Positions 3,684 to 64,000 of a DNA stretch of 64,000 bases are shown one piece after another (the stretch's first letter is position 1; every line of letters starts with the position of its first letter). The stretch spans positions 192,001 through 256,000 of the forward strand of contig CAWDPO010000023.1 in NCBI GenBank assembly GCA_963804165.1. Reading direction: 5' to 3'. A model generated the notes under the pieces. It made no database searches and was not told the origin of the DNA. It worked only from the letters and a program-made list of their open reading frames with translations. The DNA comes from an uncultured delta proteobacterium (lineage in GTDB: Bacteria; Desulfobacterota; Binatia; UBA9968). Both the position numbers and the translations under genes were made by a program.

Positions 3684-3687
3684 AGCG

Positions 3688-24303: not shown

Positions 24304-24313
24304 CGTCGCTAAC

Positions 24314-26610: not shown

Positions 26611-26622
26611 AAATATTCCTCG

Positions 26623-46893: not shown

Positions 46894-46973
46894 ACTTCTG
46901 ACCTCCGTCAGTGAACAGGCACTGGCGAACGCCACCCTTTCACACGAAAGCTGGCATGAACATCGATGCGAGT

Positions 46974-48167
46974 CTAGTGTTTCTCCAAAACTCCCACCGG
47001 ATTGCCGCGCGAAAACAGCCCAATCACGCCCGCGCGGCAATCTTTCTTTGCTATGACCAAAGCCATCGCGAGGAAAATATAGAGGAAAGAATAGTAGAAA
47101 CGGAATTGCGGGTCGGGAAATAGCAATTGCGTCGAGAACAGCAGAAAAATAACCGCCGCTTCGAAAAGCGAAAAGGACAGATTGGCGAGAATTGCCACGG
47201 CGAACAAAGACTGCGCCGCGGTCAAAAACATCTCTTCAATTTGGCGTTGATCCATGACCATAGGTGCCATGCTTCCGCCGGAGATCATGAAAACCACCGG
47301 CAGCATGCCGATCAGCAACGTCCATTGATTGACCTTCGACGACAGCAAAGCTCCCATGGCCGTGCCGGGTTGCGCTTTCAGCGCGAACAAGATCGCGACA
47401 ATGAACTCCGGAGACTCGGAGGCCAATGGCGCTAGCCACTGAACCAGGACGAATTCCTCGATGCCGAACGTACGGCCGGTAGCCAAGAGTCCTTCGGCGA
47501 AAGGTTCCGCCGCGATAAAAATCGTAAATCCGGAATACAAGAAGAACAGCACGGTGAACAGCCGTCGTGCACCTTCACCCCAGCCTTCGATCATCGCCGG
47601 CGGCCCTTCTAGCTCAGTCTCCACATGCTCGGCCTTGGACGCGGCGCGCATGTAGAGAACGAAAATCGCGATGAAGACGACCGCATCCATCAAATCGAGA
47701 CGCCCTCTGATGGGAATCAGAAACGAGTAAACCGTCGCCAGGCCCAAATATAAAATTTCACTCCTATGGCCAGGTTCGAGTTGGATGGATTTTTTTCCGG
47801 TCTTAAGAAAATAAGTCAGCACCACGGCCGCCCAACCGACACCGATCAACAAGCGGTTGGCGCCGGTCATGTTCGCCATCGCGAATGCCGTGTATTTCGG
47901 GTCTTTACCGGCCTGCCAAGCGAAATACATATCGACTGCGTACTCAGGAAGTACCGCGATCAACGCGAGCAGCGCGATCGCTAAAGCTTGGGGATATCTT
48001 TCTGCGCCAGTTCGGCGGCCCATGAAAGCATGAACGCCGCGCCAAAAATCGCCACGCCGGAGCTAAGCGCCATCCAATGCGGCGGCGGATGTCCGCCTGA
48101 CAAAGTGGATAACTATCCATTGTAAGCAGAGTAATGCCGATGAACCGATCCAGAGCCAATTCGCCAT
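46974..48167 (-). CDS. Sodium:calcium antiporter family protein (N-terminal frameshifts)
   Basis: Alpha repeats AVLPEY..ANMTGAN and ASESPE..SSKVNQ. Confidence 0.85.
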
Positions 48168-48250
48168 CCGTTCCTCCGCGCGACAATCACATGATCGACA
48201 ATAACTCCCGTCCCTATTTTCATAGCCAATAGTGGAAGTCAATGCCCAAA

Positions 48251-48301
48251 TAAAAAGGGCGGGGTGATGCCCGCCCTTTCTTGAATTTGGTGGAGGCAGC
48301 G
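48251..48301 (-). other. Displaced tmRNA-like 3' end with its terminator (probable island att boundary)
   Basis: Minus strand CGCTGCCTCCACCA, then hairpin AAAGGGCGGG/CCCGCCCTTT and a T tract; no RNA gene body upstream. Confidence 0.6.
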
Positions 48302-48670
48302 ACACAGTGTAAAGAACCACTGTGCACTCTTTCCTTCCGCTTCTTATAATGTGGCGGCATCAATCCTGTTTAGAATGGAAACTTTCCGGAAACAGCCATA
48401 CCACGTTGGCGAAAATGCAGCGATTCCGTTGGGGCAAATAACGGCCAATCAGTAGGTCCGGGGTCGCAAATCACAGCGCAATTTCTTAAAATTCTCCTCG
48501 CTTTAATCCACGGGCACATCTGATTACGAATCGCGGTCAGCCTGCGAAACCAACCAAGAAGACCCAAACATTCCCGAAGGAATCGGTTGATATAGTGACT
48601 CGGTTTCCGGGTCTGTTTGGGTCTCTTGGGAAGCACTTCACGGACAAAAGGCGGACATTCCTTCCGTTTG

Positions 48671-48700
48671 ATTGAAGGAGAATTCAATTCAATCCTAGCG
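48671..48700 (+). repeat. Cassette site S1 (right half)
   Basis: ATTGAAGGAGA-ATTCAATTCAATCCTAGCG, 10 nt from an SBP stop codon. Confidence 0.8.
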
Positions 48701-48710
48701 TCGCAACCGG

Positions 48711-49420
48711 TTACTTGATCACTCTATCTGCTCGCGCGAGCACGTTCGGCGGAATCGTCAGGCCGATTTGCTTGGCAGCTTTGAGATTTATGATGAACTC
48801 GAACTTCTTCGGCTGTTCGCTTAGCGCCTTTCTTGTCGACGTAGGTTGCGGAGCGGCGAAACAAGTCGCTAACGTTCACGCCGTAGGTCATGAGCCCACC
48901 AGCTTCCACATAGTCCGCCACGTTGTATATCGCTGGAAGCCGAGTCCTTACTGCAAGTTCGACAACCTGTTTTCGCTCAGAATTGAGCACAGGACCCCCC
49001 AGCGCGAGGACAGCCTCAGCACGCCCCTTGCTTGCGGCCCGGAAGGCAGCCTCAATATCCCTGCCATCTAGTACGTCTAGGTATTGAAGCTTCACCTTGA
49101 ACGCCCCTGCGGCGAATTCCGTTTCTTTCAACGACTGTGCTTGGCCTGGGATGGTTGAAGTCCCGAGGATGGCCACGCGGGAGAGGCTGGGAACAGTCTC
49201 CTTCAAAAGCTCCAGTTGTTTTCCGCTTATCTCTGGGCGAAGAGTTGACAGTCCAGTGATGTTCCCACCAGGACGTCATGACGATGGGAATCGTAACAGT
49301 CGCTTCCTTGGCAGCACGGGTTACTGACGGAGCAGCCGTGACGATGACATCCACCTTGAGACGCACTAGCTCCGCCGCGAGCGCGGGGAAGCGATCGAGT
49401 TTTTCCCCTGCAGTCGGTAC
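48711..49420 (-). pseudogene. ABC substrate-binding protein (PF04392-like) pseudogene
   Basis: LAAELVRLKVDVIV, GGLMTYG and [20 protein letters not shown] fragments; internal deletions; no N-terminus. Confidence 0.88.
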
Positions 49421-49536
49421 GCTTGGCAGTCGCCTCTTTTTGCAACTGATAGCGCAAGAGGCTTAGCCTCGATAACTCGGTTTTGAATGTTCTCAGCCCG
49501 GGGGTTGGCGGCCTGTTCGCGCGCAAGCGCTTGTTA

Positions 49537-49908
49537 TTATAGCTCAGCGCGAATAAATTTATCGATTTTTGCTTTAATTATCTCTAACGAGATCGGCTTT
49601 TCCAAGTAATCGACCATTCCCGCGTCTAAAGCCTCTTCCCGAGCGTGGCATCCAAGAAAATCGCTGCAACCAATGATCGGTATGTGAGTGGTTATTGAAT
49701 TGCTTCTCACTGCGCGGGCTACGTCGGCGCCTTTCATATCCGGAAGATCAATATCCAACAAGATAAGCGTTGGCTTACCGGAAATAGCTAGTTTCATTGC
49801 CTCTGCGCCGCTCGCGGCTTGTGCGACTTCGTAGCCACAACCATGGAGCATCAACGTCAGGATTTCTCTTAGATGTAGATTGCCGTCGACGATAAGGATC
49901 TTCGGCAT
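49537..49908 (-). CDS. Response regulator receiver (DivK-like)
   Basis: ILIVDG, LDIDLP, KPI. Confidence 0.85.
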   Translation of the reverse strand: MPKILIVDGNLHLREILTLMLHGCGYEVAQAASGAEAMKLAISGKPTLILLDIDLPDMKGADVARAVRSNSITTHIPIIGCSDFLGCHAREEALDAGMVDYLEKPISLEIIKAKIDKFIRAEL

Positions 49909-50119
49909 ATTGTGGCGGAGTCAAGTTTAGAGAAAGATCCATTGGGGCGCAACGCGGAAATTTTCTCATAATCACAGCACTGCAAAAGGGCGTTTCCAAT
50001 TTTGCTCTCTAGGAAACTCAAAGGCGCAATTACGGATTTAATGGAGCGGAAGCGATCTAGTTAAAGAATCATCGGCAACGCCAGTGCGCTGAATCGCCGG
50101 GCCGCCCGGAGCACTGTTT

Positions 50120-50662
50120 TTAACGAAGAGATCGCCCCGGCCGAATAGCAGGATTGGTCGACGAGCTTCGGTGTGATCGATGAAATCTGTTAAGCAATCC
50201 GAACTCTTGCAGCTTTCTAGAAGTGAAGGTTCGGGACTCGCTCTGCCCGTCCGCTTGCTGGTAATCCACCGCGACGGAATCGGGAGTCCAGAAAATATGA
50301 AATGCGTTGGCCCCCGCTCTATCAAAGTGATCGCCTAAGCTACGCATGAGTTGCGACAGCTTACTTGAGACCTGGGTTTGTGAAGAAGAATGGTTTCGTC
50401 TTTGCTTTTGCCATTGCGCCTCCAGTCGGGAAATAACAGCGGAGCTGAAGCGGAAGGCGCTGCCACTCGACGAGGAGCGATGACCAAAGTTTTCGCTCAA
50501 AAAGCCTTCGCTCGTTGCGTTTCGTAAAATCCACTCACTCGACGGGCTCAGAGCATCGCTACTAACAAGGTAGTCGTGGCCATCTTTCTCAAGTTCAAAG
50601 GTTGCAATCCTGGCAGCTTCTAGCGACTGGCCAATGACTCTCAACGATCTAGCATGGGTCAT
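50120..50662 (-). CDS. Hypothetical protein, paralogue of 50787-51194
   Basis: MTHARSLRVIGQSLE...LSQLMRSLGDH. Confidence 0.7.
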   Translation of the reverse strand: MTHARSLRVIGQSLEAARIATFELEKDGHDYLVSSDALSPSSEWILRNATSEGFLSENFGHRSSSSGSAFRFSSAVISRLEAQWQKQRRNHSSSQTQVSSKLSQLMRSLGDHFDRAGANAFHIFWTPDSVAVDYQQADGQSESRTFTSRKLQEFGLLNRFHRSHRSSSTNPAIRPGRSLR

Positions 50663-50786
50663 ATATGAGTTTTATTTGAATTGTAGGGGTCAGTGCAACA
50701 GCTATCGCGTCCGGAAAGACGCTGCAAGCAACTTAGGTGATTCTTATTCTTTGTTATCGTCTCTAGGCGACATTTATGCAAGGGGA

Positions 50787-51194
50787 TTAGACTGTGGCTG
50801 ATGGGATTGTCCAACCGAGCTCCTGCAGCTCTTTAGCCTTGAATGTTCGGCTCTCGCTTGGTCCAACGGGTCTTTGGTAATTCACTAAAACCGAGTGAGA
50901 CATCCAGGAAATGTGAAAGGCGCGTGTTCCGGCGTCGTCAAGATGATCGCCTAAATTGCGAAGCATTTGAGAGAGTCTATTCGCTTGCGTGCGTGAAAGA
51001 GAATGACGTTCTCTTTGTTTTTGCCCCTGGGTATCAAGCCGCGAGATATGGGCTGAACTGAGACGCACCAACCGATGAGTCAACGAATTGCTGAGCACAA
51101 GATAATTGTCGCCGCTATTCTCGATCTGAAAGTTCGTGACCCGAGCTGCCTCAAGTGATTGTCCGATTGCTCTCAGTGACTTTGCGTGATGCAT
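50787..51194 (-). CDS. Hypothetical protein, paralogue of 50120-50662
   Basis: MHHAKSLRAIGQSLE...LSQMLRNLGDH; GAGGGG RBS. Confidence 0.7.
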   Translation of the reverse strand: MHHAKSLRAIGQSLEAARVTNFQIENSGDNYLVLSNSLTHRLVRLSSAHISRLDTQGQKQRERHSLSRTQANRLSQMLRNLGDHLDDAGTRAFHISWMSHSVLVNYQRPVGPSESRTFKAKELQELGWTIPSATV

Positions 51195-51554
51195 TTTCGA
51201 TCCCCCTCGTGTGCGTGATGGCAAATTTCTGCGTGACCGCCAATCGCGCCTCCCCGACGGTAGTCAAAGCGAGTGAACCAATCGAATACCAGGTGTAAGA
51301 AACCATGTCGACAACTTTGTCCATCTTGTGAATATATTCTCCAACTTTTCTCAAAATGAGCGGATTATCCGAGCGCACGTGGCATGTTTTGAGTGTCCCA
51401 TCCAGCATTTGCCTATCGATGTAAGTCAAAACCAGCGAATTAGGACGCGAAACAGGGGTAGTATGCTGTTATGAGAATAAAGACTGAGACGAGGCTGTCA
51501 TGAAGCAGTGAAAGAATTGTTTAGGCGAAAAACGTGCAGCCGGAGGGATCAGTC

Positions 51555-51821
51555 CTAGAAACGTTGACTTCGGTCGGAGCGCAGGAGAGCGCCACAGTGA
51601 TGGCACTTAGATGTTCGGTAGTTGATTCGCTCGGAACAACGCGGACATTTAAATGCTTTTGGCGCGCGCCTCATCGCCCATGCCGCGAAAACGAAAATTG
51701 CACCCGCCGAGAACAGGACCGGACGGACTTCCTCGTGGTCGGCGATCACCGAGGCGGCGAAAACCATCAAGATTCCCAGGACAACGAAGACCCACGGGAC
51801 AAGAGTTGGAATCGTATGCAC
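51555..51821 (-). CDS. Small membrane protein with C-terminal zinc ribbon
   Basis: Two TM segments, then CPRC..CHHC. Confidence 0.5.
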   Translation of the reverse strand: MHTIPTLVPWVFVVLGILMVFAASVIADHEEVRPVLFSAGAIFVFAAWAMRRAPKAFKCPRCSERINYRTSKCHHCGALLRSDRSQRF

Positions 51822-52315
51822 CGAGGTCTTTGTACTAACGCGATTTGTTGTTTACAACTGTTTTCTTCCAAGCAGCCGCCCACCGATGACGATCACCAGA
51901 AAAGCCGCACTCACCGCGAATAGTAGATTGACGCCTAGGCCGAATGGCGCTAGCCAACCAACGATGAATACCACGACGCAGGCGACGAAAAGTAGCAGGT
52001 AAAATCGAAGCGCGTAGGGCATGAGGCTGGCTCATATCGCTGACCACATCGGACTGCAATCTCACGCTGTTCAAATCCGATGAGGTTTTCTAACTCGCCG
52101 ACAACCCTTTGGCGATTTTTCCCTCTATCACGAAAAACGCCTGTGGTTAGGGAAAGCCGTCTTACGCGTCTGAGTCTTTCGTTCACTAAATGCTTGATTC
52201 AGCCGTTTTGCTCCGCCCACGCTACCGCAAAGGGGCACGCGTTTCCTTACTTTATCCCGAAAATCCTTCTGGCATATCTATTGCGCTTTTGAAGGGACAA
52301 GGAGAGACATCATAG

Positions 52316-53278
52316 ATGCGAAAATCGGCGGAGAAAACTATCTTCCTGGAACCGATGTACGCCCTCGCGGTTCGCAATCTCCCCGAAGGAGAGGACTGGC
52401 AGTACGAGATAAAACTTGACGGCTATCGGTGTATCGCCGCCCATGACTCCACCGGAGTAAAGTTGTGGTCGCGCAGCGGGAATTTATTAACAGCTCAATT
52501 CCCGGCGATCGCACAAGTCTGCCAGGTGCTTCCCCGGGGCACGGTCGTCGACGGCGAGATCGTCTCCCTCGACGAGAACGGCCTGACGTCATTCAATCTA
52601 TTACAGCGCCACCGCTCGGAGGCATCGGCGATTCGTTACTATTTGTTCGATTTGCTTGTTGACCGCAGCGAAAGCTGGCTAAATGTCCCGCTCGCGGATC
52701 GGCGCGCCGCACTCGCCACAAAAGTCCGCCGGACCCTGCAACCTCCTTTATTAATCTCGGAAACGATCGAGGCGCCCGGCGATCAACTGATTCAGTCGGC
52801 GAAAACCCTCGGCTTCGAGGGCATTATCGCAAAGCGTTTGAACTCCCTATACGAATCGGGAAAGCGCAGCGGAGCCTGGGTCAAATATAAGATCAACAAA
52901 GGACAAGAGTTCGTGATCGGCGGCTTTACACCCGGCAATCCGTTCGACGCCGTCATCGTCGGATATTACCAGGACGGTAAGTTATTCTACGCGGGAAAAG
53001 TTCGTGCCGGCTTTGTGCCGCACGTCAGGCGCGAGGTGATGGCGAAGATGAAAGCATTGAGAATCGACACTTGCCCTTTTGCCAATCTACCGGAGAAACG
53101 ACGTACGCAGTGGGCGCTCACCCGCGAGGAAATGAAAGACTGCGTATGGCTCGAGCCGGAACTCGTCGCCCAGATTGAGTTCACCGAATGGACTCCAGAC
53201 GGGCATCTGAGACACGCGAGTTTCATCGGCCTTCGCACCGACAAGCGCGCGCGGGAAATTGTACGAGAGCCCGGTTAA
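52316..53278 (+). CDS. ligD: ATP-dependent DNA ligase (LigD ligase domain)
   Basis: EIKLDGYR, DGEIV, EGIIAKR, WVKYK, EFVIGG, LRHASF. Confidence 0.92.
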   Translation: MRKSAEKTIFLEPMYALAVRNLPEGEDWQYEIKLDGYRCIAAHDSTGVKLWSRSGNLLTAQFPAIAQVCQVLPRGTVVDGEIVSLDENGLTSFNLLQRHRSEASAIRYYLFDLLVDRSESWLNVPLADRRAALATKVRRTLQPPLLISETIEAPGDQLIQSAKTLGFEGIIAKRLNSLYESGKRSGAWVKYKINKGQEFVIGGFTPGNPFDAVIVGYYQDGKLFYAGKVRAGFVPHVRREVMAKMKALRIDTCPFANLPEKRRTQWALTREEMKDCVWLEPELVAQIEFTEWTPDGHLRHASFIGLRTDKRAREIVREPG

Positions 53279-53354
53279 ACTCGATGCAATCTCATCCCGA
53301 ATTTCCTCGTTCTGGCAAATTGCCGGAACCACGCGCTTTCTGCATGTCGGATTT

Positions 53355-53753
53355 TTACCTCGATCTAAACTCCCAGGGCGCCGGTATCCTCGCAACCTCG
53401 GCATTCAAGCGGTCGATCTCTGCCTTGATCTTTTCATCCTTGGTTCGGAGGTATTGCGTGCCAAGCCGGCCAAGGCGTTGATCGATTGCATAGCGGACGG
53501 CGTCATGAATGCCGCCAAAGTTAACGCGGAGATTCTGCTGCTGGCCCTCGCCATCGTCATTGAGGCCAAAGGGTTGCGGGATGCGATCAAGGTGATGTCG
53601 AAACGCTTCCGCGTCCCATCGTGTATCGATGTAGCGCTCGATCGTGTCTGCCGCCTCGTTAACCTCGGGTGTATCGATGCGGCGCTCATTGCAACCGAGC
53701 GTAGCGTCTTCAAGTATCTTGAGGGCTTCAAGGACTCGCACACACGATTGCAT
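53355..53753 (-). CDS. Hypothetical protein
   Basis: 132 aa ORF with plausible composition; overlapping alternative ORFs exist. Confidence 0.4.
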   Translation of the reverse strand: MQSCVRVLEALKILEDATLGCNERRIDTPEVNEAADTIERYIDTRWDAEAFRHHLDRIPQPFGLNDDGEGQQQNLRVNFGGIHDAVRYAIDQRLGRLGTQYLRTKDEKIKAEIDRLNAEVARIPAPWEFRSR

Positions 53754-54318
53754 GCACTGAAATACATTCAGGTGTCAAATCCTGAATGAGTTCAGACGGT
53801 GCATGCGACGACGACGCACCCGCGGGCGCTGCGTTGTCTGGAGTCGCGCGTAACGCCGGCAACGTCCGTCGTCGCCTGAATCAGAACGCCAAGCCAAAGC
53901 GCCTTTTCTTCCACAATTTATCGCCTTTCCGACAAGTGCCAGGGCTATTGACAAGGGCATCGTAAATAAATATTTTCGCACCGCCATGAATCTACGCAAT
54001 CACCCTGAATAAGCACCTGGCCGCCTAGCTGGCTTGCACTGTCGGGAACGCGGGGAAAAAATCGCCCGGTGAATCCGCCATCCTCATAAACGTTGGCCTC
54101 TCCAATATTGACCCGGTAACGATTTGTTATCTAACCGTGCAATTTGAGAATGAGGAATACTTGGGAACTCTGCTATGCAAAGAGCCTCACACTTGCCGCG
54201 CTGCGTTACCAAATCCTGCAAAACCATATCGGAAAACCGATGAGTGAGATTGGCGATTTAGACTTGCTCTACCCACAAACATGAGACCCAAGTCAGGGCT
54301 TAGAAGTAAAGGTTTTTT

Positions 54319-54531
54319 ATGCCGAATCGCGCGACCAAGCATACGTTTTCATTTAGCGTTAAATTTGAAGGCAAGAAATGCGAAGCGAACTACTCTATAC
54401 AGTCTGGCGTCGTCACTGTTACTTCCGACTACGGCTCTAAATCAGCTCTTGCTGGCGGAAAAGCTGATTTAACTGCGCGCATGTTGCTGCGCGAAATTCT
54501 TCGAGAAGCGAAAAGCCGTGGCAAACGATAA
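54319..54531 (+). CDS. Small hypothetical protein
   Basis: ATG ORF with AAAGG RBS, followed by hairpins. Confidence 0.5.
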   Translation: MPNRATKHTFSFSVKFEGKKCEANYSIQSGVVTVTSDYGSKSALAGGKADLTARMLLREILREAKSRGKR

Positions 54532-54970
54532 TTGAGCGCACCCGCTAACTCTCTCCCTCATGAGAGTTAAAAATTGAGAGAGCCGGGTGAAAGGATAGGC
54601 TCCGGCCCTCTCTCACTGGCCAACCCACGCCACACCTTTTATTTTGTGTGCGATTCAAGCGCGGCCAAGCCATAGCCCAAGCGATGATTTTCCCCCCTGC
54701 CCCGGCAGGCGGGCGCCCCCTCTTTTACTTGTAGAATCTAGCACGCGCGCTGGAATTTCGGTTAACTTTTGGCGTGGTCACTAGCAGATGACAAACCAGA
54801 TTACCGCGAGGGACGACCGTCTTTCCTGCTCGCGTCGTTAAAACCGCTTCATACACGACAACCGAGTTGGATTCCTAATCCGGTGCGGCGCTGCAACATG
54901 CCAAAGCGAAAAGATAATTTTGATGCTGTGCCCGACTTGTGCCCGCCCTGACAGCCCATCCGAGTTTCAA

Positions 54971-54999
54971 TCGTAGGAGAATTCAGTTCAATCGTAACG
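54971..54999 (+). repeat. Cassette site S2 (right half)
   Basis: TCGTAGGAGA-ATTCAGTTCAATCGTAACG. Confidence 0.78.
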
Positions 55000-55169
55000 T
55001 TTCGGGTGGGCGGTGCTTCGAGCGTCGGTCTCAACCCGAGGAGTTGGTGAAGCGGCAGCACAATCGCCTGTGATTGAGAAACGTGATGACCGCACATCAA
55101 TTGTTTCTCTCGGAAGGTCTTGCCTCAGCGTTTCTTCTTTCCAGTTTTTGCTTTGGTGGCCAGGTCATG

Positions 55170-56084
55170 CTAGGCGGAAAGCGCTTTCGCGGCGCCCTTG
55201 ATCTTTTCCGGTCCTTCTGTCGTCAACTCGTTGACGAGTTTGACAAAGTTGGGATGCTCCAATCCCGATACCAGGAAAGTCCATCTCCAGGCGCGATGGG
55301 TCTTTGTCGAAATCTCCTCTTTCTCGGCTTCCGTGAACTTGCGGCCGGTCACGTTCTGCAGAGTCTCTATGTTCAGCTGGATCTGCTGCAACAGTAACCC
55401 GTCGATAGCTCCCCCAAGTTCGAGGAGCTCATCGACAGCAGTTTCTCGCTCCTTGAGGGTCGCCGTCTCCGCAATCTCGTCGATTAGCATGGTGTCAAGT
55501 TTGGCGTGTTGTGCCTCTTCCATCCAATGAAATCTCAAAAGATCGCGGAACAGCTCATCGAGACCCGAGGCATCACGCACGTGTTCGACGTAATGGAGCT
55601 GGGTAAACCATTCGATTACCGTGGTCAAGTACAGCGCGGCCAGCACCGACTTGCTCAGGACGACCTTCGCCACATCCTCCCGACCGGGGATTAAGCCGCA
55701 CTGCGCGCCGAAACCTTGGTCGAACAAGACCACCGCGCGGCGAAAGAGCTCCTGATGCTTGAGCTCCTCCTCTGCGAACCGCAGCAGCGAACGGAGCCTG
55801 ACTTTCTCCCCGTAGGCGTCCTTCAACGCCGCTTGCGTCACCATGGGAATAATAAATTCCTCCACGAAAGCGAAGATATGGCAGTAGGCGTTGCCCATGA
55901 TCTGGTTCAACTGGCGCTTCTCGTTGTCGTTCAGACATGTGATGTTGTCAACACCGCTCAATCGATTCGGCAGGAAACGCTTCGAGAAATCGAAATTCTT
56001 CCCTGCAAAAACATCGTCCTCTTTCCACGCTACCTTCTTGGAATTGTCGAGACATTCCTGGTAGGAGTAATTGTGCGAAAGCAT
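55170..56084 (-). CDS. Ferritin-like diiron protein (AurF-like oxygenase candidate)
   Basis: EEELKH and EEAQH ExxH pairs; GAAGAGG RBS. Confidence 0.8.
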   Translation of the reverse strand: MLSHNYSYQECLDNSKKVAWKEDDVFAGKNFDFSKRFLPNRLSGVDNITCLNDNEKRQLNQIMGNAYCHIFAFVEEFIIPMVTQAALKDAYGEKVRLRSLLRFAEEELKHQELFRRAVVLFDQGFGAQCGLIPGREDVAKVVLSKSVLAALYLTTVIEWFTQLHYVEHVRDASGLDELFRDLLRFHWMEEAQHAKLDTMLIDEIAETATLKERETAVDELLELGGAIDGLLLQQIQLNIETLQNVTGRKFTEAEKEEISTKTHRAWRWTFLVSGLEHPNFVKLVNELTTEGPEKIKGAAKALSA

Positions 56085-56206
56085 CGCGCACCTCTTCAAC
56101 GTAAAGAGATTTTAGGCTTCGTCGAATGATTCTGAAAAACCCAACACACTCTGGCTAGCCCACGCTATTTTATCAGTTCGATCAAAGTCAAGCTTATTAT
56201 CGCCGC

Positions 56207-56277
56207 AGGATTGAACTGGAACGCAACAGTCGCGTCTTGTAGGATTAAGTCGTTGGAGAATACAATTCAATCCTAGC
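56207..56277 (+). repeat. Cassette site S3 (complete hairpin)
   Basis: AGGATTGAACTG...GGAGA-ATACAATTCAATCCT; alignable to S6 along its length. Confidence 0.82.
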
Positions 56278-56298
56278 TCGCCGCGTCGCTTTGTTCGG

Positions 56299-57284
56299 TT
56301 ACTTGATCACCTGATTCGCCCGCTCGAGCACGCGGGGCGGAATTGTCAGACCGATCTGCTTCGCCGTTTTCAGATTGATCACAAACTCAAACTTCGTTGC
56401 CTGCTGCACCGGCAAATCAGCCGGTTTGGCGCCTTTTAAAATCTTGTCGACGTAAACCGCCGCGCGCCGATAGAGGTCATCGTATTCCGTCCCGTAGAAC
56501 ATGAGGCCGCCCTCTTCGACAAACCCCTTATCAAAGTAAATAGCCGGCAACCGATATTTGTCGGCAAGCTCCACGATCCGCTTTCTTTCGGCGAAAAATC
56601 TGCGATTGGAGGTCGTCATAATCGCGCCAACCTGTTTTTGCTTTGCGGTTTGAAAGGCGCGCTCTAAATCTTTGGGGTCGGCTTGAGCCTCGATCTCGTC
56701 CAATTTGAGCTTCAGCGCCAGAGCCGCAGGCTTGATCTCTTTCAATTGAAAGTTTCCTGGTCCGGCTGCCGGAGTCCACAGAAGTCCAACTCGGCCGAGC
56801 TTGGGCACCGCGTCGTTGAGTATCTCTAGTCTTTTGGTATTCAGTTCTACTGATTGAGCAGTAAAACCCGTCACATTCCCACCCGGCCGGGCTAGACTGG
56901 CAACCAATCCTGCGCCTATAGGGTTCGCAGCGCTCGTCATTACGATGGGAATGGTAGCGGTGGCGCTCTGGCCGCTAACGCCGCTACTGTCCCGGTAACC
57001 ACAATCAGATCGATCTTAAGACGAACCAGCTCCCCCGCAAGCTCAGTTAGTCTTTCAGTCTTTTGCTCGGCAAACCGGTACTCGATGGTGAGATTCTTTC
57101 CTTCATTCCATCCAAACTTGCTCAGCTCTTGCCGGAACGCGTCCACGAGGACTGCATTGCCAGAAGCAGTGCTTGGATCCAGCAAACCTATGCGGAAGAT
57201 TTTCCCTGTCGGCTGCGCCTCGACTATGGCCACAAAAGCAAGCAGGACCACTACAAACAGGATTGAGAAAATGGCTTTCCTCAT
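56299..57284 (-). CDS. ABC substrate-binding protein (PF04392-like), one frameshift near 56965
   Basis: Signal peptide, [26 protein letters not shown]. Confidence 0.9.
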
Positions 57285-57923
57285 TGCACATACCATTACC
57301 CGTCATGTGTATCACGTGGAACGGTAGTAGAGAACAGTGAAATTTACGACGGGAAGACGGCAGTTTTTCGTCGCATGGGAAGACCGAAGTGAGTCGTGGC
57401 GTAGGGAGTCAATCGAATGTCGCCGAAGGTCAAGAAAAAGACGCTTGAGGGCCTTTATAGAAGTGCGGGTCTGGATCATTGTGGATAAGACACACTTAGG
57501 GGAGCGAGTACTATGCACATCACCGCCGGACCTTGGCCACGTTTCTCTATCGCAACTTTGGTTATTGGCCTGTGGATGCTGTGGCGGAGAAAGCAGAATT
57601 AACTTTGAGCCCGCGATGGTTTTGCGTGCAATCCTAATTTTGGTCACCGAGTTGCGACTAATTCGTCGAAACAAAACTGCGCCCCTGGGTGAGCGTCTGG
57701 CGTTTTTCGGTACGCGCGCCCATCCCATATGACCGTGAAGCTATTGGCCGCATCATGGATGATCTCGCAAGGCTATCGCTTCATTGAAGACGCAGAAGTC
57801 AAAGCCGCGATTCTCGAAGTGCTGATCGACTTGGGTCGTCAATTGGGCGAGCTTGGGACACCCAACTATCATTGACCGTGGTTTCTGCACCTGTTCAAAC
57901 AAATTTGAAAGAAAGGCAAAACA

Positions 57924-58076
57924 ATGAAAGCGGAGAAGGACGATGGGTATAAGTGCCCACGATGTGACGACCACATTCCGGAGCAGTTCTACTGCCGCGA
58001 CTGCGGCTACGTGCCGAACTGGAGGCAGATTGAAACGACAAGACCCACAGAGAAGCGGCATAACTCATGGAGCTGA
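57924..58076 (+). CDS. 50-aa zinc-ribbon microprotein
   Basis: My translation: MKAEKDDGYKCPRCDDHIPEQFYCRDCGYVPNW...; GAAAGG RBS; below the ORF-track cutoff. Confidence 0.6.
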   Translation: MKAEKDDGYKCPRCDDHIPEQFYCRDCGYVPNWRQIETTRPTEKRHNSWS

Positions 58077-58098
58077 GATGTCCTATCTAAATTCGACT

Positions 58099-58510
58099 GT
58101 GATGACTTTCGTCTCCCTGCCAACGGCCTTGAACAACCGAAAACCGCTGATTGCCATCGTTGATGACGATGAGCCTGTCTGCCGTGCAGTGAGACGACTG
58201 GTGCGATCGGTGGCGATGGACGCGGAAACATTCAACTTCAGGACAACAGTTTCTCGATCTGCTTGAAGCGATGCCTTCGTTTCAACCCAAATGTTTGATT
58301 CTGGATGTGCAAATGCCGGAGATGAATGGTCTTGAAGTCCAAGATTGGCTCGTGAAAAACGGCAACACGGTTCCCGTGATTTTTATCACGGCGCACGATG
58401 AGGTCGGCGTCCGTGACAAGGCGCTAGCCGCTGGCGCAGTTGCGTTTTTGCGTAAGCCTTTCAACGACGAGCTTTTGATCAAGACGCTTCGCGAGGCGCT
58501 GAAGGACTGA
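58099..58510 (+). CDS. FixJ-like receiver-only response regulator (frameshift near 58237)
   Basis: IAIVDDD, LDVQMP, FITAH, KPF. Confidence 0.8.
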
Positions 58511-58511
58511 T

Positions 58512-58540
58512 TTGAAGGAGAATTCAGTTCAATCCTGGCG
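58512..58540 (+). repeat. Cassette site S4 (right half)
   Basis: TTGAAGGAGA-ATTCAGTTCAATCCTGGCG. Confidence 0.82.
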
Positions 58541-58569
58541 TCGCAGTTTGTTTTCCCGGCATCATCGAA

Positions 58570-59524
58570 TCACTTTATCCGACCTGGCCAATACATTCCG
58601 CGGAATCGTCAGGCCGACCTGCTTTGCGGCTAACTAAAGTCGATCCATCCCACCAGCGCGGTGCCGAAATGCTCGCCATCAACGACCCGGAACGAGCATT
58701 CAAGTGACCTGCACGTAGCGACCCTTCTCGATCTCATAACCACGCACAAGGTGATGGCGCTCTAAGACTTCGTTACAGACTGCACAGAGATGGCGGTGTT
58801 TGAGGCGTGACCCGCATTGGGCGTGTAAAAGATTGAAGAATGGTCGCTGTGTGGAGCTCGACCGGGATGGCACCAAGCCAAATGGCCAGGAGGTCTTCGA
58901 TGGCTCGATGCGGCGCGGGGCATCGGCTACCGGGCACCAAGCGATGAAGGCTTAAAGAAACAGATTGCACTGCCCTATCTTGATGGCGCTCTGGATCGTG
59001 CGCGAAAGCTCGAATAAAACTCCATTACGACGGACGGTGCATCTTTCCATCTGCTACTCTTAAATCCATGGCTCGCCCCATTGCCCGGAGCGTTCTGCGC
59101 TTTCAGAGCAGCGATGAACCTCCGGGCATACTCCAGTGATCGAACCCGCTGGCAACAGGATCGCCGTCCTGCGCAAAGACAATGGGAATCGTGGTCGTCG
59201 CTTTCTTGGCGGCACGGGTTACCGACGGACCAGCCGTTACGATGACATCGACCTTGAGACGCACCAGCTCGGCCGCAAGCTCACGCTCGCGATCCGCTTT
59301 TCCCTCTGCGTATCGATACTCAACGTCGATGTTTTCCCCCTCCACGTACGCCAGCTCGCGCAGCCCTGCCGGAATGCCGCGACGCGAGCGACAACGGCGG
59401 CGGGTTTGGTGTCAGCTAGGAATCCTATCCGTGAGACCTTCTTCGGCTGTTGCGCACCGGCTCTGACTGCGAAAGCAAGCAGTACCACTACAAACAGGAT
59501 TGATAAGGCACCCGCTTTCTTCAT
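58570..59524 (-). pseudogene. ABC substrate-binding protein pseudogene with its middle replaced by foreign DNA
   Basis: N-terminal part to DPVASGF at 59140-59524; C-terminal AAKQVGLTIPRNVLAR at 58570-58630. Confidence 0.85.
58700..58923 (-). pseudogene. ku: Ku protein N-terminal remnant
   Basis: FGLV / IPVELHTAT / FNLLHAQCGSRL..CAVCNEVLERHHLVRGYEIEKGRYVQV across frameshifts. Confidence 0.72.
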
Positions 59525-59627
59525 TGCACACACATGTATCACGCGGGACGCTACCAGAGAGAAAGTAACATTTAGGACGGAGGGCGACAGCGATTCTTCG
59601 GGTGAGAAAACCAGATTTTAAGCGTGA

Positions 59628-59688
59628 GATTGAACTGAACGACGCTTCAATGTAGATGCTGGCGGAGATTAAGCATTGAAGGAGAATT
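59628..59688 (+). repeat. Cassette site S5, left part (right part displaced to 62215-62233)
   Basis: GATTGAACTGAAC-GACG-CTTCAATG..CATTGAAG-GAGA-ATT. Confidence 0.85.
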
Positions 59689-59835
59689 GGACTAAACCGC
59701 TTCGCGGTAGGCCGGAGGGCCGGAGTCCCTGCCATGACGTTCTTCCTGCTTTAGTTTTGCAGTTATCATTTTTTTGACGGTGTGTCGTGTCGCAGTGATA
59801 GCCTCAGTGAAAATTTTTCACTCAAGGAGGCTGTC

Positions 59836-60681
59836 ATGGGAGCATTACGAGACCGGATGATCGAGGAGATGAAGCTGCGGAACTTTTCGGCTGCAACACA
59901 GAAGACGTACGTCTACGCGGTGACACGGCTAGCGAAATATCATGGCAAAGCGCCGGACCAGCTCGGTAAGGAGGAGATCCGAGCCTTTCTTGTGCATCTG
60001 ATAGTGGAGCGGAAGTTATCGCCCAATGGTCTGACCGGCTACTGCTCGGGGCTGCGGTTTTTCTATAACGAGACTCTGGGATGGGACGAGAACAAGCTGT
60101 TCATTCCACCGCGCAAGCAATCGTCACCTCTGGCGGAGGTCTTCAGTCCCGAGGAAATCGTGCGTCTGATCCGCGCGGCCCGAGGTCTCAAGCAGCGTGT
60201 GCTGTTAATGACCGCCTACTCGGCTGGACTGCGAGTCAGCGAGTTAGTCAATCTCAAGGTCAACGACATCGATCCGGCGCGCATGACGCTACGTATCAGG
60301 CAAGGTAAAGGCGGCAAAGACCGTTACGCGATTTTGTCGCAGAACCTCCTTGCGGAACTGCGTGTGTATTGGAAACGCTACCGGTCCGCGGTCTGGCTTT
60401 TCCCCAACCGAGCCAAGAACGGCCCTTTGAGTCGAAACGAAGCGTGGCACATCTTCAATTCGGTCAAGAGAAGAGCGGGCCTTAAAAAGGGCCGTGGCAT
60501 ACACAGCCTGCGGGCATGTTTTGCCACTCATCTGTTGGAAGCGGGTGTGGACCTACGCTCGATCCAGTTGTTGATGGGGCACACCTCGCTTATGTCTACC
60601 CAGCGCTACTTGAGGCTATCGCCACAGAGCGTCAACCGTGCCCTTAGTCCGCTCGACCGATTACCGTTAACGACGGTCTAA
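59836..60681 (+). CDS. Tyrosine recombinase with N-terminal SAM-like domain
   Basis: GLRVSE, GKGGKDR, HSLR, LMGH and TQRY give R-K-H-R-H-Y; AAGGAGG RBS. Confidence 0.95.
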   Translation: MGALRDRMIEEMKLRNFSAATQKTYVYAVTRLAKYHGKAPDQLGKEEIRAFLVHLIVERKLSPNGLTGYCSGLRFFYNETLGWDENKLFIPPRKQSSPLAEVFSPEEIVRLIRAARGLKQRVLLMTAYSAGLRVSELVNLKVNDIDPARMTLRIRQGKGGKDRYAILSQNLLAELRVYWKRYRSAVWLFPNRAKNGPLSRNEAWHIFNSVKRRAGLKKGRGIHSLRACFATHLLEAGVDLRSIQLLMGHTSLMSTQRYLRLSPQSVNRALSPLDRLPLTTV

Positions 60682-60684
60682 GCC

Positions 60685-61875
60685 GTGGGCGCCGGCTCTG
60701 GACAGCCGGCAGCAAGAGGCGGCGTTGAACTGGCCGATATTTTTCGCGCCTATGGCGAGTCGTATCGCCGCCACCATCCGTTGCCGGTCTCCCATCTTAA
60801 GGTTATGCAGGCCGTGGAGCGCTGTCGCACTGCAGCTCTCGGAGGCCACCTCCAGCAGTGTGATGCCTGTGGCTTCGAGCGTCCCGCCTACAACTCCTGC
60901 CGCAATCGACACTGCCCTAAATGCCAATCGTTGGCGAAGGTCAAATGGCTCGATAAACAAAAGTCAGAACTGTTGCCGACCGGATATTTTCATCTGGTCT
61001 TTACCTTGCCGCACGAATTGAACCCGTTGATCCTGATCAACAAGAAACCTCTCATCAATATCCTGTTTCAATCGGTCTGGCAGACCTTGGCGCAGTTTGC
61101 CCGGAGTCATCTCGGTGGGAGCTTGGGGATCACCGCAGTTCTGCACACCTGGGACCAGACCCTGTTGGATCATTTTCATCTGCACTGTCTGGTTCCCGCC
61201 GGCGCGTTGTCCTTTGATCGAAACCGCTGGGTCCCGGCGCGTCAGGACTTTCTCTTTCCAGTCAAAGCCCTGAGCCGGGTCTTCCGCGCTAAGTTTCTCG
61301 ACTCGCTCAAAAAGAGCTTCGATCAAAGCAAGTTGCTCTTCGTCGGACAGATCGCGCCCTTGGCCGACGCCGACAGCTTTGGTGTACTTCTCAATGGATT
61401 GCGGAAAAAACCGTGGGTGGTCTATGCCAAAAAACCATTTGGCTCTCCCGTCTATGTCCTTGATTACTTAGCTCGCTACACTCATCGTGTAGCACTCTCC
61501 AACGATCGCATCTGCTCGCTCCACAACCGGGAGGTCACCTTCACGTACCGCGATCGGAAAAATGAAGATCGACGTAAATTGATGACGCTGGGGGCCGAGG
61601 AGTTCATTCGACGCTTTTTGCTCCACGTCATCCCCAAGGGTTTCATGCGGGTGCGCCACTACGGCTTTTTAGCCAACCACCGCAAAGATTGTCTGTCGAA
61701 GTGTCGTCAACTCGTGGGACTTTCACCTGCACTCATCCCACCTCCTCAACGCTCTCCTGACGAGTTGATGCTGGCACTGAGGGGCATCGATATCCATCGC
61801 TGCCCCCGCTGCCAGACCGGAACGCTGATGTGGGTCTTCGACTTGGCGGTCTCCCGACCGTGGGATTCGTCGTGA
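60685..61875 (+). CDS. IS91-family (Y2 HUH) transposase with zinc-binding domain
   Basis: CRT..LGG..C..CG..SCRNRHCPKC, HLVFTLP, HTW..HFHLH, YLARY, RHYGFLAN. Confidence 0.95.
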   Translation: MGAGSGQPAARGGVELADIFRAYGESYRRHHPLPVSHLKVMQAVERCRTAALGGHLQQCDACGFERPAYNSCRNRHCPKCQSLAKVKWLDKQKSELLPTGYFHLVFTLPHELNPLILINKKPLINILFQSVWQTLAQFARSHLGGSLGITAVLHTWDQTLLDHFHLHCLVPAGALSFDRNRWVPARQDFLFPVKALSRVFRAKFLDSLKKSFDQSKLLFVGQIAPLADADSFGVLLNGLRKKPWVVYAKKPFGSPVYVLDYLARYTHRVALSNDRICSLHNREVTFTYRDRKNEDRRKLMTLGAEEFIRRFLLHVIPKGFMRVRHYGFLANHRKDCLSKCRQLVGLSPALIPPPQRSPDELMLALRGIDIHRCPRCQTGTLMWVFDLAVSRPWDSS

Positions 61876-62233
61876 AGATCGCTCGATCAAATCAAAACCA
61901 GAGTCTTGCTGTTGCTCAGTGCCGGAGCCAATGCAGCGCTGTATTCTGTTCCGCCATTTTCCCTGCTACTAGCCCGCGCTACAGTGCGCGCAGCTCCCTG
62001 CTCGCCGCTACAAACCACATCCCATACCGCCCCATCATCTTGTTGCTCACCACTCAGCAGCGTCCGTTTACCTCATCCTTTCCTGTTCAATCCCCATAGG
62101 CAACGACTCTTGCCTCTCCCAGCGCTTTAGTCCAATGGGTTTTAACCTGAATGCGCCCGTTCTTCCCAGCTATCACCGATCGTTCTGCGCTCGCATTCAG
62201 GTTAAAACCTGTACATTCAGTTCAATCCTGGCG

Positions 62234-63208
62234 TTACTTAATCACCTTGTCAGCCCGTGCCAGCACATTTGGCGGAATCGTGAGACCGATCTGCTTCGCC
62301 GTCTTCAGATTGATCACCAGCTCGAACTTCGTCGGGGCTTCAACGGGCAAGTCCGCAGGCTTGGTCCCTTTCAGAATCTTATCCACATAGGTTGCGGCGC
62401 GGCGGTACAAGGTAGTGTAGTCCGACCCGTAGGACATAAGGCCGCCCGCCTCCACAAACTCTTTCTCCCAGTACATCGCTGGCAGTCGATGCTTAGCGAC
62501 GAGTTCAACAATGCGCTTCCTGTTCGCGCTCGGGACAGGACCTTGGATCACGAGCAGCGCGTCGGCGCGCCTCTGGCTCAAGGCGCCGAACGACGGTTCG
62601 AGATCCTCCCGTCGTCTTATCTCAAGGGATAACGGCGTTAACCCCAGCGATGGTGCCACCGCCTCGGTCTCCTTGAATGCGACGACGGACGCTGTACCTT
62701 CTGGATTCCAGAGGATCGCCACCCGAGATGCCTTCGGCAAAACCTCCTTGATCAGTTCAAGCCCTTTAGTGCTCAACTCTGGAGAGAGGGTCGTGTTTCC
62801 AGTCACGTTGCCTCCGGGGCGTGCAAGGCTCGCGACAAGACCGATTCTCACAGGGTCGCCGCCCGCTGCGATCACGATCGGGATTGTCTTGGTTGCTTTG
62901 GCCGCCGCTCTCGCGGCCGTTAGGCCTCCCGTAACGATGACATCCATTTTGAGCCGTACTAGTTCAGTGGCTAGCTCAGGGTATTTCTCTGTTCGTCCTT
63001 CTGGATCTCGCTGTTCGATTATGATGCTCTTCCCCTCGATGTACCCGAGTTCGCGCAGACCCTGTTGAAAGGCATCGACGCGCTGCTGACCACCGCTCAC
63101 GAGCATGCCTACTCGCGGAACTTTCGCCGGCTGCTGCGCCTCGACTATAACTGCAACAGCAAGCAGTATCACGGCAACCAACGCCGACGCCCAGCCCGCT
63201 TTTTTCAT
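62234..63208 (-). CDS. ABC substrate-binding protein (PF04392-like), intact
   Basis: Signal peptide, [48 protein letters not shown]. Confidence 0.94.
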   Translation of the reverse strand: MKKAGWASALVAVILLAVAVIVEAQQPAKVPRVGMLVSGGQQRVDAFQQGLRELGYIEGKSIIIEQRDPEGRTEKYPELATELVRLKMDVIVTGGLTAARAAAKATKTIPIVIAAGGDPVRIGLVASLARPGGNVTGNTTLSPELSTKGLELIKEVLPKASRVAILWNPEGTASVVAFKETEAVAPSLGLTPLSLEIRRREDLEPSFGALSQRRADALLVIQGPVPSANRKRIVELVAKHRLPAMYWEKEFVEAGGLMSYGSDYTTLYRRAATYVDKILKGTKPADLPVEAPTKFELVINLKTAKQIGLTIPPNVLARADKVIK

Positions 63209-63306
63209 GGCCGCTACATTACCACGCGGAGCCTAGCGATGAAAAGTGTGATTTGCCGCAATAGAAGAACCAGAGTCTTCGAGGGGAAGAAGACCAATTT
63301 CGACGT

Positions 63307-63373
63307 AGGATTGAACTGAACGACGCTTCAGTCAAATCTCATAGGATTTAGTCGTAGGAGAAATCAGTTCAAT
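63307..63373 (+). repeat. Cassette site S6 (complete hairpin)
   Basis: AGGATTGAACTGAACGACGCTTCA...GTCGTAGGAGA-AATCAGTTCAAT. Confidence 0.85.
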
Positions 63374-63378
63374 TACAG

Positions 63379-63473
63379 CCTTAGCGTTGGCGTTGAGGGA
63401 GTGCTGAGGATCCGAAGCGATAAGGGAATCCAGCGGCAGGACTGCTGCGTTCCCCTCCACCGCTTTGTTAGTT
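63379..63473 (-). repeat. Degenerate classical integron attC-like site
   Basis: Minus strand AACTAAC-AAAGC-GGTGGAGG...CCTCAAC-GCCAAC-GCTAAGG follows the R-L-L-R box layout with GTT changed to GCT. Confidence 0.5.
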
Positions 63474-63586
63474 AAGTTAGATAGTGTCATTTCACGCAAT
63501 CGAGCAGTTGAAAGCGAGCCGAGAGCCGCTTGCAACGAACCGAGCCGAGGCGCTAAACGTCGAATCAACTGAAATTGATGGAACCG

Positions 63587-64000
63587 ATGAAGTTAATTAA
63601 ACAGTTACCCGTTTGGCTGTTCGTCTCGCTGCTTCTGCTGGGAGCCGTCCCTACTTCAGCAATGGAGATGAGCGTCAGCGGCTCTCAGCTCATCCTCAGC
63701 GGTTTCATTAACGAGTTGGATTACGACAAATTCCTTTCGCACCTAACCCCAGCCATACGAACTGTCGTCTTCACCAACAGCCCGGGCGGGGTACATTTGA
63801 TCGGGTTAGCCCTTGCTCACGAGATTCGACGCCGAGGGCTGTCGACCGTTGCCTTGGGGTACTGTAACTCAGCCTGCGCCAATGCGTTCCTTGGTGGAGC
63901 GGATCGCCGGTTGGCCAATGACCGTAGCTACGTTGCGTTTCACGGCAATTACTCGTACCGGATCGGCAGACCTTTAACCGGACACTTCGGCGAGCTATCT
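63587..64000 (+). CDS. Exported ClpP/crotonase-like protein (COG3904-like), partial
   Basis: Not in the ORF track; my translation shows a signal peptide, NSPGG, CNSAC..AFLGG and AFH; open to the window end. Confidence 0.75.
   Translation, partial: MKLIKQLPVWLFVSLLLLGAVPTSAMEMSVSGSQLILSGFINELDYDKFLSHLTPAIRTVVFTNSPGGVHLIGLALAHEIRRRGLSTVALGYCNSACANAFLGGADRRLANDRSYVAFHGNYSYRIGRPLTGHFGELS

Follow-up and report, generated by a model that had tools for sequence, protein, structure and literature searches.

A 64-kb stretch of the genome of an uncultured delta proteobacterium, hereafter the window (positions 192001–256000 of contig C23 in the source assembly G000, which comprises 7.5 Mb in 46 contigs and is 81% complete), contains an array of palindromic sites that bound co-oriented gene units. 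The anatomy of these sites, their arrangement in arrays, the polarity of the genes between them, the points at which homology breaks off and a recombinase gene nested between the arms of the same site family lead us to propose, with a probability of roughly 0.55, a recombinase-driven cassette-array system that resembles integrons or Xer-site modules but uses a site family of its own and, probably, a dedicated nested Xer-like recombinase. From these observations, we infer that recombination occurs and which enzyme would catalyze it, on a substrate that would be either double-stranded DNA or a folded single strand. To our knowledge, no well-studied platform other than integrons collects single genes as cassettes behind recombination sites that fold. 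The comparisons below cover 90 genomes of the same bacterial family, whose members are cited by code (G003, G018, G043, G044, G060, G062 and others) where they have to be told apart.

In gene direction, the full site is a 72-base palindrome that reads arm A' (AGGATTGAACTGAA), the spacer TTCTCC, a degenerate arm, a short variable stretch, a degenerate inverted arm, the spacer GCGTCG and arm B (TTCAGTTCAATCCT). It corresponds to two tyrosine-recombinase-type core sites placed back to back, each with a 14-nt arm, a 6-nt spacer and a 14-nt degenerate arm, and short forms such as A'-TTCTCC-B (14-6-14) are also present. As a single strand, the full site can form a nested hairpin in which both 6-nt spacers stay unpaired. 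Single full sites fold at –10 to –14 kcal/mol, with z-scores of –3.7 to –4.3 for five of the six site strands folded and of –1.95 for the plus strand of the third window site, S3. A structure alignment of 50 distinct full sites, drawn from G000, G018 and G062, has 90.4% pairing in the outer helix and 61.3% in the inner helix, with register 0 the best of seven slides; the structure counted was written by hand, which by itself tends to favor a structure over its slid versions. Both 6-nt spacers are conserved in sequence in these sites and are not complementary to each other. In the inner stem, 7 of 11 pairs show changes on both sides, with a covariation score of 0.135 compared with 0.108 after shuffling (0 of 500 shuffles as high), and RNAalifold alone finds just five pairs in the 50 sites, at –0.44 kcal/mol. 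The folds and the alignment agree with the layout of outer arms, unpaired spacers, inner stem and variable loop given in a preliminary description of the window, which was made from its sequence alone.

The six repeat copies claimed in that description are present where it placed them. With up to two mismatches allowed, the 14-nt core TTCAGTTCAATCCT has eight matches in the window, all between 48683 and 63320, as compared with 0.51 expected, and none of 100 shuffles gave eight or more. Three of the sites are half-sites (S1, S2 and S4), two are full (S3 and S6) and one (S5) is full but split by an insert. S1 (48670–48700, plus strand) consists of an inner arm remnant, the spacer GGAGAA (48677–48682) and the arm TTCAATTCAATCCT (48683–48696); S2 (54962–54995, plus strand) of an inner arm, GGAGAA (54976–54981) and the arm TTCAGTTCAATCGT (54982–54995). 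S4 (58509–58540, plus strand) has GGAGAA at 58517–58522 and the arm TTCAGTTCAATCCT at 58523–58536. The full site S3 (56204–56277), with its sense on the minus strand, shows arm A', TTCTCC, an interior, a spacer variant and arm B, and S6 (63304–63379, minus strand) shows arm B' at 63307–63320, GGAGAA at 63357–63362 and the degenerate arm ATCAGTTCAATTAC at 63363–63376. The left part of S5 (59626–59686, plus strand) comprises arm B' (59626–59639), CGACGC, the interior and GGAGAA (59681–59686), and its right part (62216–62233, plus strand) is the arm TTCAGTTCAATCCT (62216–62229) followed by GGCG. The two halves are set apart by an insert of 2,529 bp (59687–62215), whose boundary a shared ATT leaves ambiguous by up to 3 nt.

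The array of the window continues to the end of C23, and further arrays are found elsewhere in the genome. G000 holds the core in 29 exact and 61 one-mismatch copies; when the spacer is taken into account, about 127 arms are found, in arrays on C5, C8, C12, C14, C18, C21, C23 and C43, several of which sit at contig ends. These arms make up 25 full sites and 33 arm-bounded intervals, and a stricter arm filter leaves 28 units that run from arm B to arm A'. Across the family, GCGTCG followed by arm B (up to two mismatches) occurs in 70 of the 90 genomes and 20 of the 23 genera, with 0–2 matches per genome for a reversed-pattern control. The counts of this motif are highest in G000 (60), G062 (50) and G018 (31), and amount to 11 in G044 and 10 in G003. 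Outside the family, the arm is no more frequent than expected by chance in two further families of its order.

The units between the sites contain one to three genes, exactly one open reading frame (ORF) being present in 13 of the 28 units of G000, and their coding strand is strongly biased. ORF bases on the B-to-A' strand amount to 34,926 as against 3,990 on the opposite strand in the 28 units of G000 (90%), 16,302 as against 3,576 in 21 units of G018 (82%) and 23,331 as against 1,140 in 12 units of G062 (95%). The genes are varied and include a TIR–methyltransferase fusion, GNAT/FeeM, TENA, methyltransferases, ATP-grasp, DUF4440, the metallo-beta-lactamase fold, histidine kinases and ABC_sub_bind, the last of which is common in units. 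Four single-gene units had been described in the window, and this holds for two of them: 54981–56259 has one ORF and 62215–63361 one ABC_sub_bind gene, whereas 58522–59685 contains ABC_sub_bind remnants and 59686–62214 is a two-gene IS91-family element. The two end arms of the last unit are exact complements, as also stated there, but self-complementarity does not hold as a general rule. Among 30 arms for which both partners are available, the partner in the same unit is closer in 9 and the partner in the same site in 14, with 7 ties, and the mean numbers of mismatches (2.06 and 2.08, respectively) make the comparison uninformative.

The sites accompany 17 of the 104 ABC_sub_bind ORFs of G000. 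A role as a regulatory element of ABC_sub_bind genes was rejected because only these 17 paralogues carry sites, and other gene families stand in the same frame. The 104 ORFs, each of at least 200 aa and matching the ABC_sub_bind protein of the window, lie in many cases in site-free tandem runs on C6, C16 and C37; inside the arrays, many copies are broken into two or three ORFs. One unit gene on C5 (L001 13199–14872) encodes the fusion of a TIR and a methyltransferase domain, 557 aa in length, and lies beside a GNAT/FeeM-like gene. TIR domains occur in anti-phage defence proteins, and by analogy this unit may be a defence-type cassette.

Homology between arrays tends to break off at the arms. 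Near-identical blocks shared between contigs (17 pairs with 34 ends) have 19 ends that lie 31 nt or less from an arm, and for 17 of these the distance is at most 17 nt. C23 is identical to C21 through the last base of a rare-variant arm B' and diverges from it exactly at the arm B'/spacer edge, past which C23 continues as a short site with GGAGAA and an arm, and C21 as a long site with CGACGC and a full interior. In addition, the homology of a methyltransferase unit common to G000 and G062, a member of another genus, starts at position +1 of arm B, and the AurF-like unit (54976–56455) is 98.4% identical to C21 from the S2 spacer onwards, the sequence beyond the spacer being different. Breakpoints of this kind are seen at three of the four arm/spacer edges. 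Furthermore, over 49 sites, mismatches in arm A' correlate with the identity of the upstream flank (r = –0.28; 0 of 2,000 permutations as extreme) and not with that of the interior (r = 0.02), and mismatches in arm B give r = –0.19 with the downstream flank (15 of 2,000 permutations as extreme) and r = –0.10 with the interior (23 of 2,000 permutations). The arms accordingly remain with the neighbouring genes, and the interior forms a module of its own, which points to exchange at the arm/spacer edges and fits poorly with a hairpin element that moves as a whole. The small contigs C21, C22 and C41, which are the source of the sharpest breakpoints, repeat parts of the arrays of C23 and C5 at 97–99% identity beside other neighbours, and may be co-binned strain variants or true paralogous arrays.

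A candidate enzyme is encoded within the site family itself. G060 has two intact genes for a Xer-like recombinase of 307 aa, each lying between arm A'-TTCTCC and GCGTCG-arm B. With the full G060 protein as the query, the gene was found in 5 of the 90 family genomes, which belong to three genera; a recombinase fragment of G018, used as an earlier query across the genus, had matched itself alone (1 of 31 genomes). Among the copies in the family genomes, arm A' and TTCTCC lie upstream in 5 of 6, and GCGTCG and arm B lie downstream in 6 of 6. Metagenome loci show the same arrangement: among 72 loci, 42 of the 48 testable ones have the downstream arm after the stop codon, and 22 of 35 have the upstream arm. 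Further co-oriented sites surround the gene. The protein family comprises more than 100 clusters with a length of about 301 aa and 62–100% identity, and the identical G060 protein is assigned to Candidatus Binatia by one source. The recombinase scores about 200 bits on both the XerC and the XerD model, below their cut-offs, and is 26–30% identical to the integron integrase IntI (26%), to the recombinase encoded in the insert of S5 and to a host Xer. Judged from its sequence and surroundings, this protein is likely to be a better enzyme candidate than the pair encoded in that insert. In the mechanism that we propose, gene units would run from arm B to arm A', strand exchange would take place at the inner arm edges beside the 6-nt spacers, and the units bounded by inverted arms and the short interiors would be shuffled independently, likely by the 301–307-aa Xer-like tyrosine recombinase.

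Several points weigh against this proposal. The Xer-like recombinase is absent from G000, at the completeness given above, and from 85 of the 90 family genomes, and a gene flanked by inverted arms also resembles an insertion sequence (IS) with terminal inverted repeats. Because the two spacers of a junction differ in sequence, its core sites should not be able to recombine with each other by classical two-strand exchange, and the proposal has to assume a one-strand mechanism to account for the short sites. The covariation of the inner stem is modest, its 59 double-change cells comparing with 48.7 after shuffling, a value reached by 25 of 500 shuffles, and the site pairs in the linkage tests are not independent. 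Interior types also recur between unrelated flanks: 45 site pairs with an interior identity of at least 0.85 have mean flank identities of 0.63 upstream and 0.58 downstream, as compared with a background of 0.58, and such recurrence would be expected from a mobile hairpin element as well. Finally, neither a product of recombination nor a circle was seen, nor any gain or loss between strains, the Logan contigs being too short for cassette order.

The attC sites of integrons carry the boxes R'' (RYYYAAC) and R' (GTTRRRY), and consist of outer boxes, about 5–6 unpaired nucleotides, inner boxes and a variable loop. The sites of the window have the same layout of paired outer boxes, spacers, inner boxes and loop. 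Like attC, they are palindromic but imperfectly so, with outer boxes that are conserved, spacers that are short and unpaired, and inner stems and a loop that vary; they can fold into hairpins, and their junction lies just 5' of TT. By comparison, the boxes themselves differ. On the sense strand they read ACTGAAT and GTTCAGT, with a T after GAA in 50 of 50 sites, so that AAT stands for AAC; on the other strand, AAC is present but ATT stands for GTT, and the AAC/GTT rule fails on one side in 50 of 50. The sites are also distinct from attC in that their outer boxes are at least 14 nt long and near-invariant across genera, both 6-nt spacers are conserved, and the breakpoints fall at three of the four arm/spacer edges and not at one. 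Their interior behaves as a separate module; the idea that the attC-like part belongs to the upstream unit was unsupported, as interior identity correlates with flank identity at r = 0.10 upstream and 0.09 downstream. The associated recombinase gene, too, is placed differently from that of integrons, within a site and not next to attI, and the enzyme it encodes is Xer-like and has no IntI insert. At the level of the array, the likeness to integron arrays, including the clusters of cassettes with no integrase close by that are termed CALINs (PMC7923331), is close: units are co-oriented, mostly of one gene and varied in accessory function, and often have no recombinase gene nearby.

Canonical integrons coexist with the arm sites in this family and are distinct from them. 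IntI is found above the curated cut-off in 33 of the 90 genomes, and G000 has no TIGR02249 match above the cut-off. The 20-kb neighbourhoods of IntI in G018, G062, G014, G015 and G066 contain no arm with its spacer, and the IntI neighbourhoods of these genomes have ordinary, varied attC sites (GCCTAAC...GTTAGGC). A strict attC finder was insensitive, returning one site per IntI neighbourhood and eight unconvincing matches in G000, and says little on absence. G060 is an exception, with IntI and a GTTAGGC attI-like core located 5 kb upstream of the first site in the same orientation. In G000, C34 carries a decayed ordinary integron (about 24300–28400) with a C-terminal remnant of IntI and an attI-like core (GTTAGGC); its cassettes number at least five and have varied attC sites (GCCTAAC...GTTAGGC), and directly behind the last of these sites come a degenerate arm B' and a CGACGT spacer. 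Ordinary attC sites abut arms at four loci, one of them in the window beside S2, where an attC-like integron-type element (54988–55052, no strand assigned) lies downstream of the AurF-like gene and overlaps the S2 arm at its outer end; it was matched by nhmmer at E 1.3e-13 with a profile built from three IntI-linked attC sites and the element itself. In sum, the view put forward in the preliminary description is sustained in two respects: the sites look like cassette-delimiting recombination sites with attC geometry, and they differ from the ordinary attC sites of the same bacterial family. In G062, four tandem tyrosine recombinase genes (C1 42291–46880) lie beside a canonical IntI and may be a recombinase-in-trio-like element.

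The insert in S5 is an IS91-family insertion sequence (59687–62215, plus strand) that entered the site at the arm/spacer edge. Its left end carries TTGGACTAAACC and the palindrome CCGCTTCGCGG, and its right end a hairpin with an 18-bp stem (62138–62209) followed by TGTACA. The element encodes a 299-aa tyrosine recombinase (59782–60681, plus strand), which is IntI/Xer-like but without the IntI insert and matches the IntI model in two stretches, skipping positions 182–240, and a 396-aa IS91-family Y2 HUH transposase (60685–61875, plus strand), which scores 430.6 bits on NF033538 (cut-off 125) and matches PF04986 (3.6e-59) and the Zn-binding PF14319 (1.5e-32). A second copy, 99.7% identical, lies 8 kb away, and diverged copies are found on C18, C30 and C24. 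All five G000 copies of this subfamily and the G062 copy sit at N|TTCAGTTCAATC of a site, whereas a copy in G043 lies outside any site; the two A-type copies are both at A|TT and the four G-type copies all at G|TT. The hairpin of the right end, which contains oriIS, folds at –19.3 kcal/mol (z-score –5.7). Joining of the two ends would give GTCCAA(C/T), hairpin, (G/A)TTGGAC, in agreement with the attC boxes given above, and a double change from C/T to G/A keeps both ends complementary between subfamilies. The insert shares with the IS91 family the Y2 HUH domain with its Zn-binding domain, the absence of a target duplication, and the oriIS and terIS palindromes. According to a published account of IS91, insertion leaves no target duplication, the oriIS palindrome lies beside a (G/A)TTC tetranucleotide with T in second place, and terIS has a palindrome (PMC13181058). 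The junctions here agree with this rule, with no duplication, the oriIS palindrome beside GTTC or ATTC and a terIS palindrome, and the shared ATT or GTT leaves the boundary ambiguous by 1–3 nt. The insert departs from the usual IS91 in its upstream IntI/Xer-like recombinase, a feature noted for some IS91 elements in another report (10.1101/542381), and in that every G000 copy occupies the same position of a single site family, a target of much higher specificity than a tetranucleotide. The 'ATT core' of the preliminary description turns out to be the 3-nt overlap at this insertion junction, and it coincides with the arm/spacer edge at which the other breakpoints fall.

G000 also has a second subfamily of IS91 elements with an integrase, at C5 (about 2650–5090), C10 (about 35560–37980), C37, C9 and C41 (two loci), whose recombinase is 57% identical to that of the window. 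The left end of this subfamily, GTTGAACTAAACC, abuts sequences such as ctggtcagtatactc..G|TT, and these resemble the attI region beside IntI in G060 (L026 2880–2900).

Three other explanations have to be compared with the recombinase-driven array. The preliminary description had taken the tyrosine recombinase/HUH pair of the window to be the engine of the system, in which the HUH enzyme would make single strands and the recombinase would insert folded cassettes at ATT. The placement of the five G000 copies and the G062 copy exactly at N|TTCAGTTCAATC, the agreement of A-type and G-type copies with A|TT and G|TT, and ends that mimic attC with a compensated change between subfamilies would all suit such an engine, as would the grouping of IS91-linked recombinases with IntI in an 'Integron-like' subgroup without the IntI insert (10.1101/542381). 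Arrays are nevertheless present in G018, G003 and G044, with 31, 10 and 11 arm-B motifs, where no Y2 transposase match was found, and no close homologue of the IS recombinase was found in G018 or G003; for this reason, the element is read as a guest that targets the sites. The insertion point also fits the (G/A)TTC rule of IS91 without duplication, so that the transposase alone can explain it, the R-box of the element matches the site arm at just 7 of 14 positions, and the G043 copy is not in a site. We regard the pair as a highly improbable engine. Alternatively, the sites might be a uniform subfamily of true attC and the arrays CALINs recombined by the canonical IntI of the family. The geometry and the G|TT junction on the arm B side point in this direction, together with the presence of IntI in 33 of 90 genomes, the co-oriented IntI and attI-like core of G060, the four abutting attC sites and the decayed integron on C34. 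We nonetheless consider it quite unlikely, given that AAT/ATT replaces AAC/GTT on one side in all 50 sites, that arms of at least 14 nt are conserved across genera, unlike the varied attC of the same genomes, that the IntI neighbourhoods of five genomes lack arm and spacer, that IntI is not enriched in site-rich genomes (6 of the 16 with at least seven arm-B matches, as compared with 33 of 90 overall), and that the sites have a nested recombinase gene of their own, with only 26% identity to IntI.

In a further explanation, which we find rather unlikely, the sites are MITE- or REPIN-like miniatures of an element of about 1 kb, consisting of the Xer-like gene between 14-nt terminal inverted repeats; the hairpins would move, and the 'cassettes' would simply be the genes between insertions. 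Such an element would account for a recombinase gene flanked by both arms in inverted orientation, for full sites that share the ends of the element around a short interior, and for the few interior types that recur between unrelated flanks on both sides. It would also suit the rare variants found in both arms of some sites (e.g., C21 5502/5545) and the many gene-bearing metagenome contigs of 1–3 kb, as when repeats break assemblies. It does not sit well with arm variants that follow the neighbouring genes and not the interior, with sharp breakpoints at the inner rather than the outer arm edge, with the existence of half-sites and of short 14-6-14 sites, or with a gene polarity of 82–95% relative to the sites, and the sequences inspected show no target duplication beyond the arms. 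Like REP, BIME and REPIN sequences, the sites are intergenic inverted-repeat hairpins in many copies that serve as IS targets; unlike them, they are clustered in arrays of accessory regions, keep a fixed polarity to genes and are associated with a tyrosine recombinase and not with a Y1 HUH enzyme. In this regard, 15 of the 18 Y1_Tnp matches of G000 were examined for a RAYT link, and for 13 of these 15 Y1 (RAYT-type) transposase genes, there is no arm-like match within 3 kb.

The recombinase-driven array that we favor can also be compared with known Xer systems. The pdif (XerC/XerD-site) modules of Acinetobacter plasmids are flanked by inverted sites of the form arm-6 nt-arm, and their shuffling has been deduced from mosaics. 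The sites described here likewise contain inverted arm-6 nt-arm core sites that are shared between neighbours, with shuffling deduced rather than witnessed, and on sequence grounds the 14-6-14 core sites together with a Xer-family recombinase would place them among pdif-like Xer-site modules. They are distinct from pdif modules in being chromosomal, with dozens of units, in environmental bacteria, and in having two core sites with different spacers per junction and a dedicated recombinase gene nested there. As in XerS/difSL, a Xer-family gene lies directly beside its own core site; the latter, however, is a single site per chromosome for dimer resolution, whereas here dozens of sites bound gene units. 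The preliminary description had not recognized the system as a described one, and the limited literature searched contained no description of the site family with its nested recombinase either.

A broader reading, which we offer tentatively and hold at somewhat less than even odds, is that of a second gene-capture system independent of integrons, in which the nested Xer-like recombinase excises, inserts and shuffles arm-bounded units in soil bacteria, and IS91 elements with IntI-like recombinases act as cassette mimics whose joined ends resemble attC and which enter both these sites and integron att sites at N|TT. If true, the cassette architecture would have arisen more than once, or diversified far from IntI; the system would offer a natural comparison for how tyrosine recombinases change from duplex to folded single-stranded substrates and back; and it would bring to light a large pool of mobile genes, as yet unannotated, in soil bacteria that are abundant and uncultured. 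The IS91 result bears on the role of the integrase in some IS91 elements, which here have attC-like ends and lie at the crossover points of recombination sites (the G043 copy excepted).

Sequencing runs and metagenome contigs were also compared with the window. Of the 24 runs listed, 20 (from 12 studies) contain 21–31% of the sampled words of 54900–63400, which is about the share of the insertion sequence. Contigs of four soil metagenome runs, each from a different study, cover the IS91-family element (59681–62233) with few differences, and outside it the contigs of the same runs cover conserved gene parts only. Joints in read contigs have short sides (20–67 nt) that match at 90% likeness, and other organisms may be their source. 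A joint that leads from 56247 back to 54971, in one run, could be the junction of a circular or tandem form of the AurF-like unit, or another site variant; no conclusion was drawn from the joints.

The remaining features of this part of the window are mostly unit genes and their remnants. S1 adjoins the 3' end of an ABC_sub_bind (PF04392) gene fragment (48724–49206, minus strand; E 3.7e-07), the stop of which lies next to the site. The gene of the S2–S3 unit is an ORF of 309 aa with a weak match to AurF-like di-iron oxygenases (55170–56099, minus strand), and it is followed beyond S3 by an ABC_sub_bind gene (56299–57296, minus strand) split into two ORFs (56299–56940 and 56940–57296). At 57943–58510, a response-regulator receiver domain extends over two ORFs, and the gene looks frameshifted: ORF 57943–58266 matches no family, and ORF 58271–58510 covers positions 41–110 of PF00072. 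Between S4 and S5 lies a degraded ABC_sub_bind remnant (58541–59542, minus strand), of which 59237–59542 matches at E 4.6e-08, and the unit between S5 and S6 holds an intact ABC_sub_bind gene of 324 aa (62234–63208, minus strand). The arm resembles a T-arm, and duplicated tRNA ends were rejected as its origin, as ARAGORN found no tRNA gene in the window; a scan of 46000–64000 with Rfam, which has no attC family, gave no match at E up to 1. The window ends within a 215-aa ORF without a Pfam family (63575–64000, plus strand, for the part inside the window), in a block that begins at 63309 and is 99.3% identical to C21 and C22. Just past the window, a stretch of 1,496 bp with a 472-aa ORF (C23 257795–259290) interrupts a unit; it is 99.9% identical to C10 33983–35478 and 76% identical to a sequence on C34, and is probably another insertion sequence.

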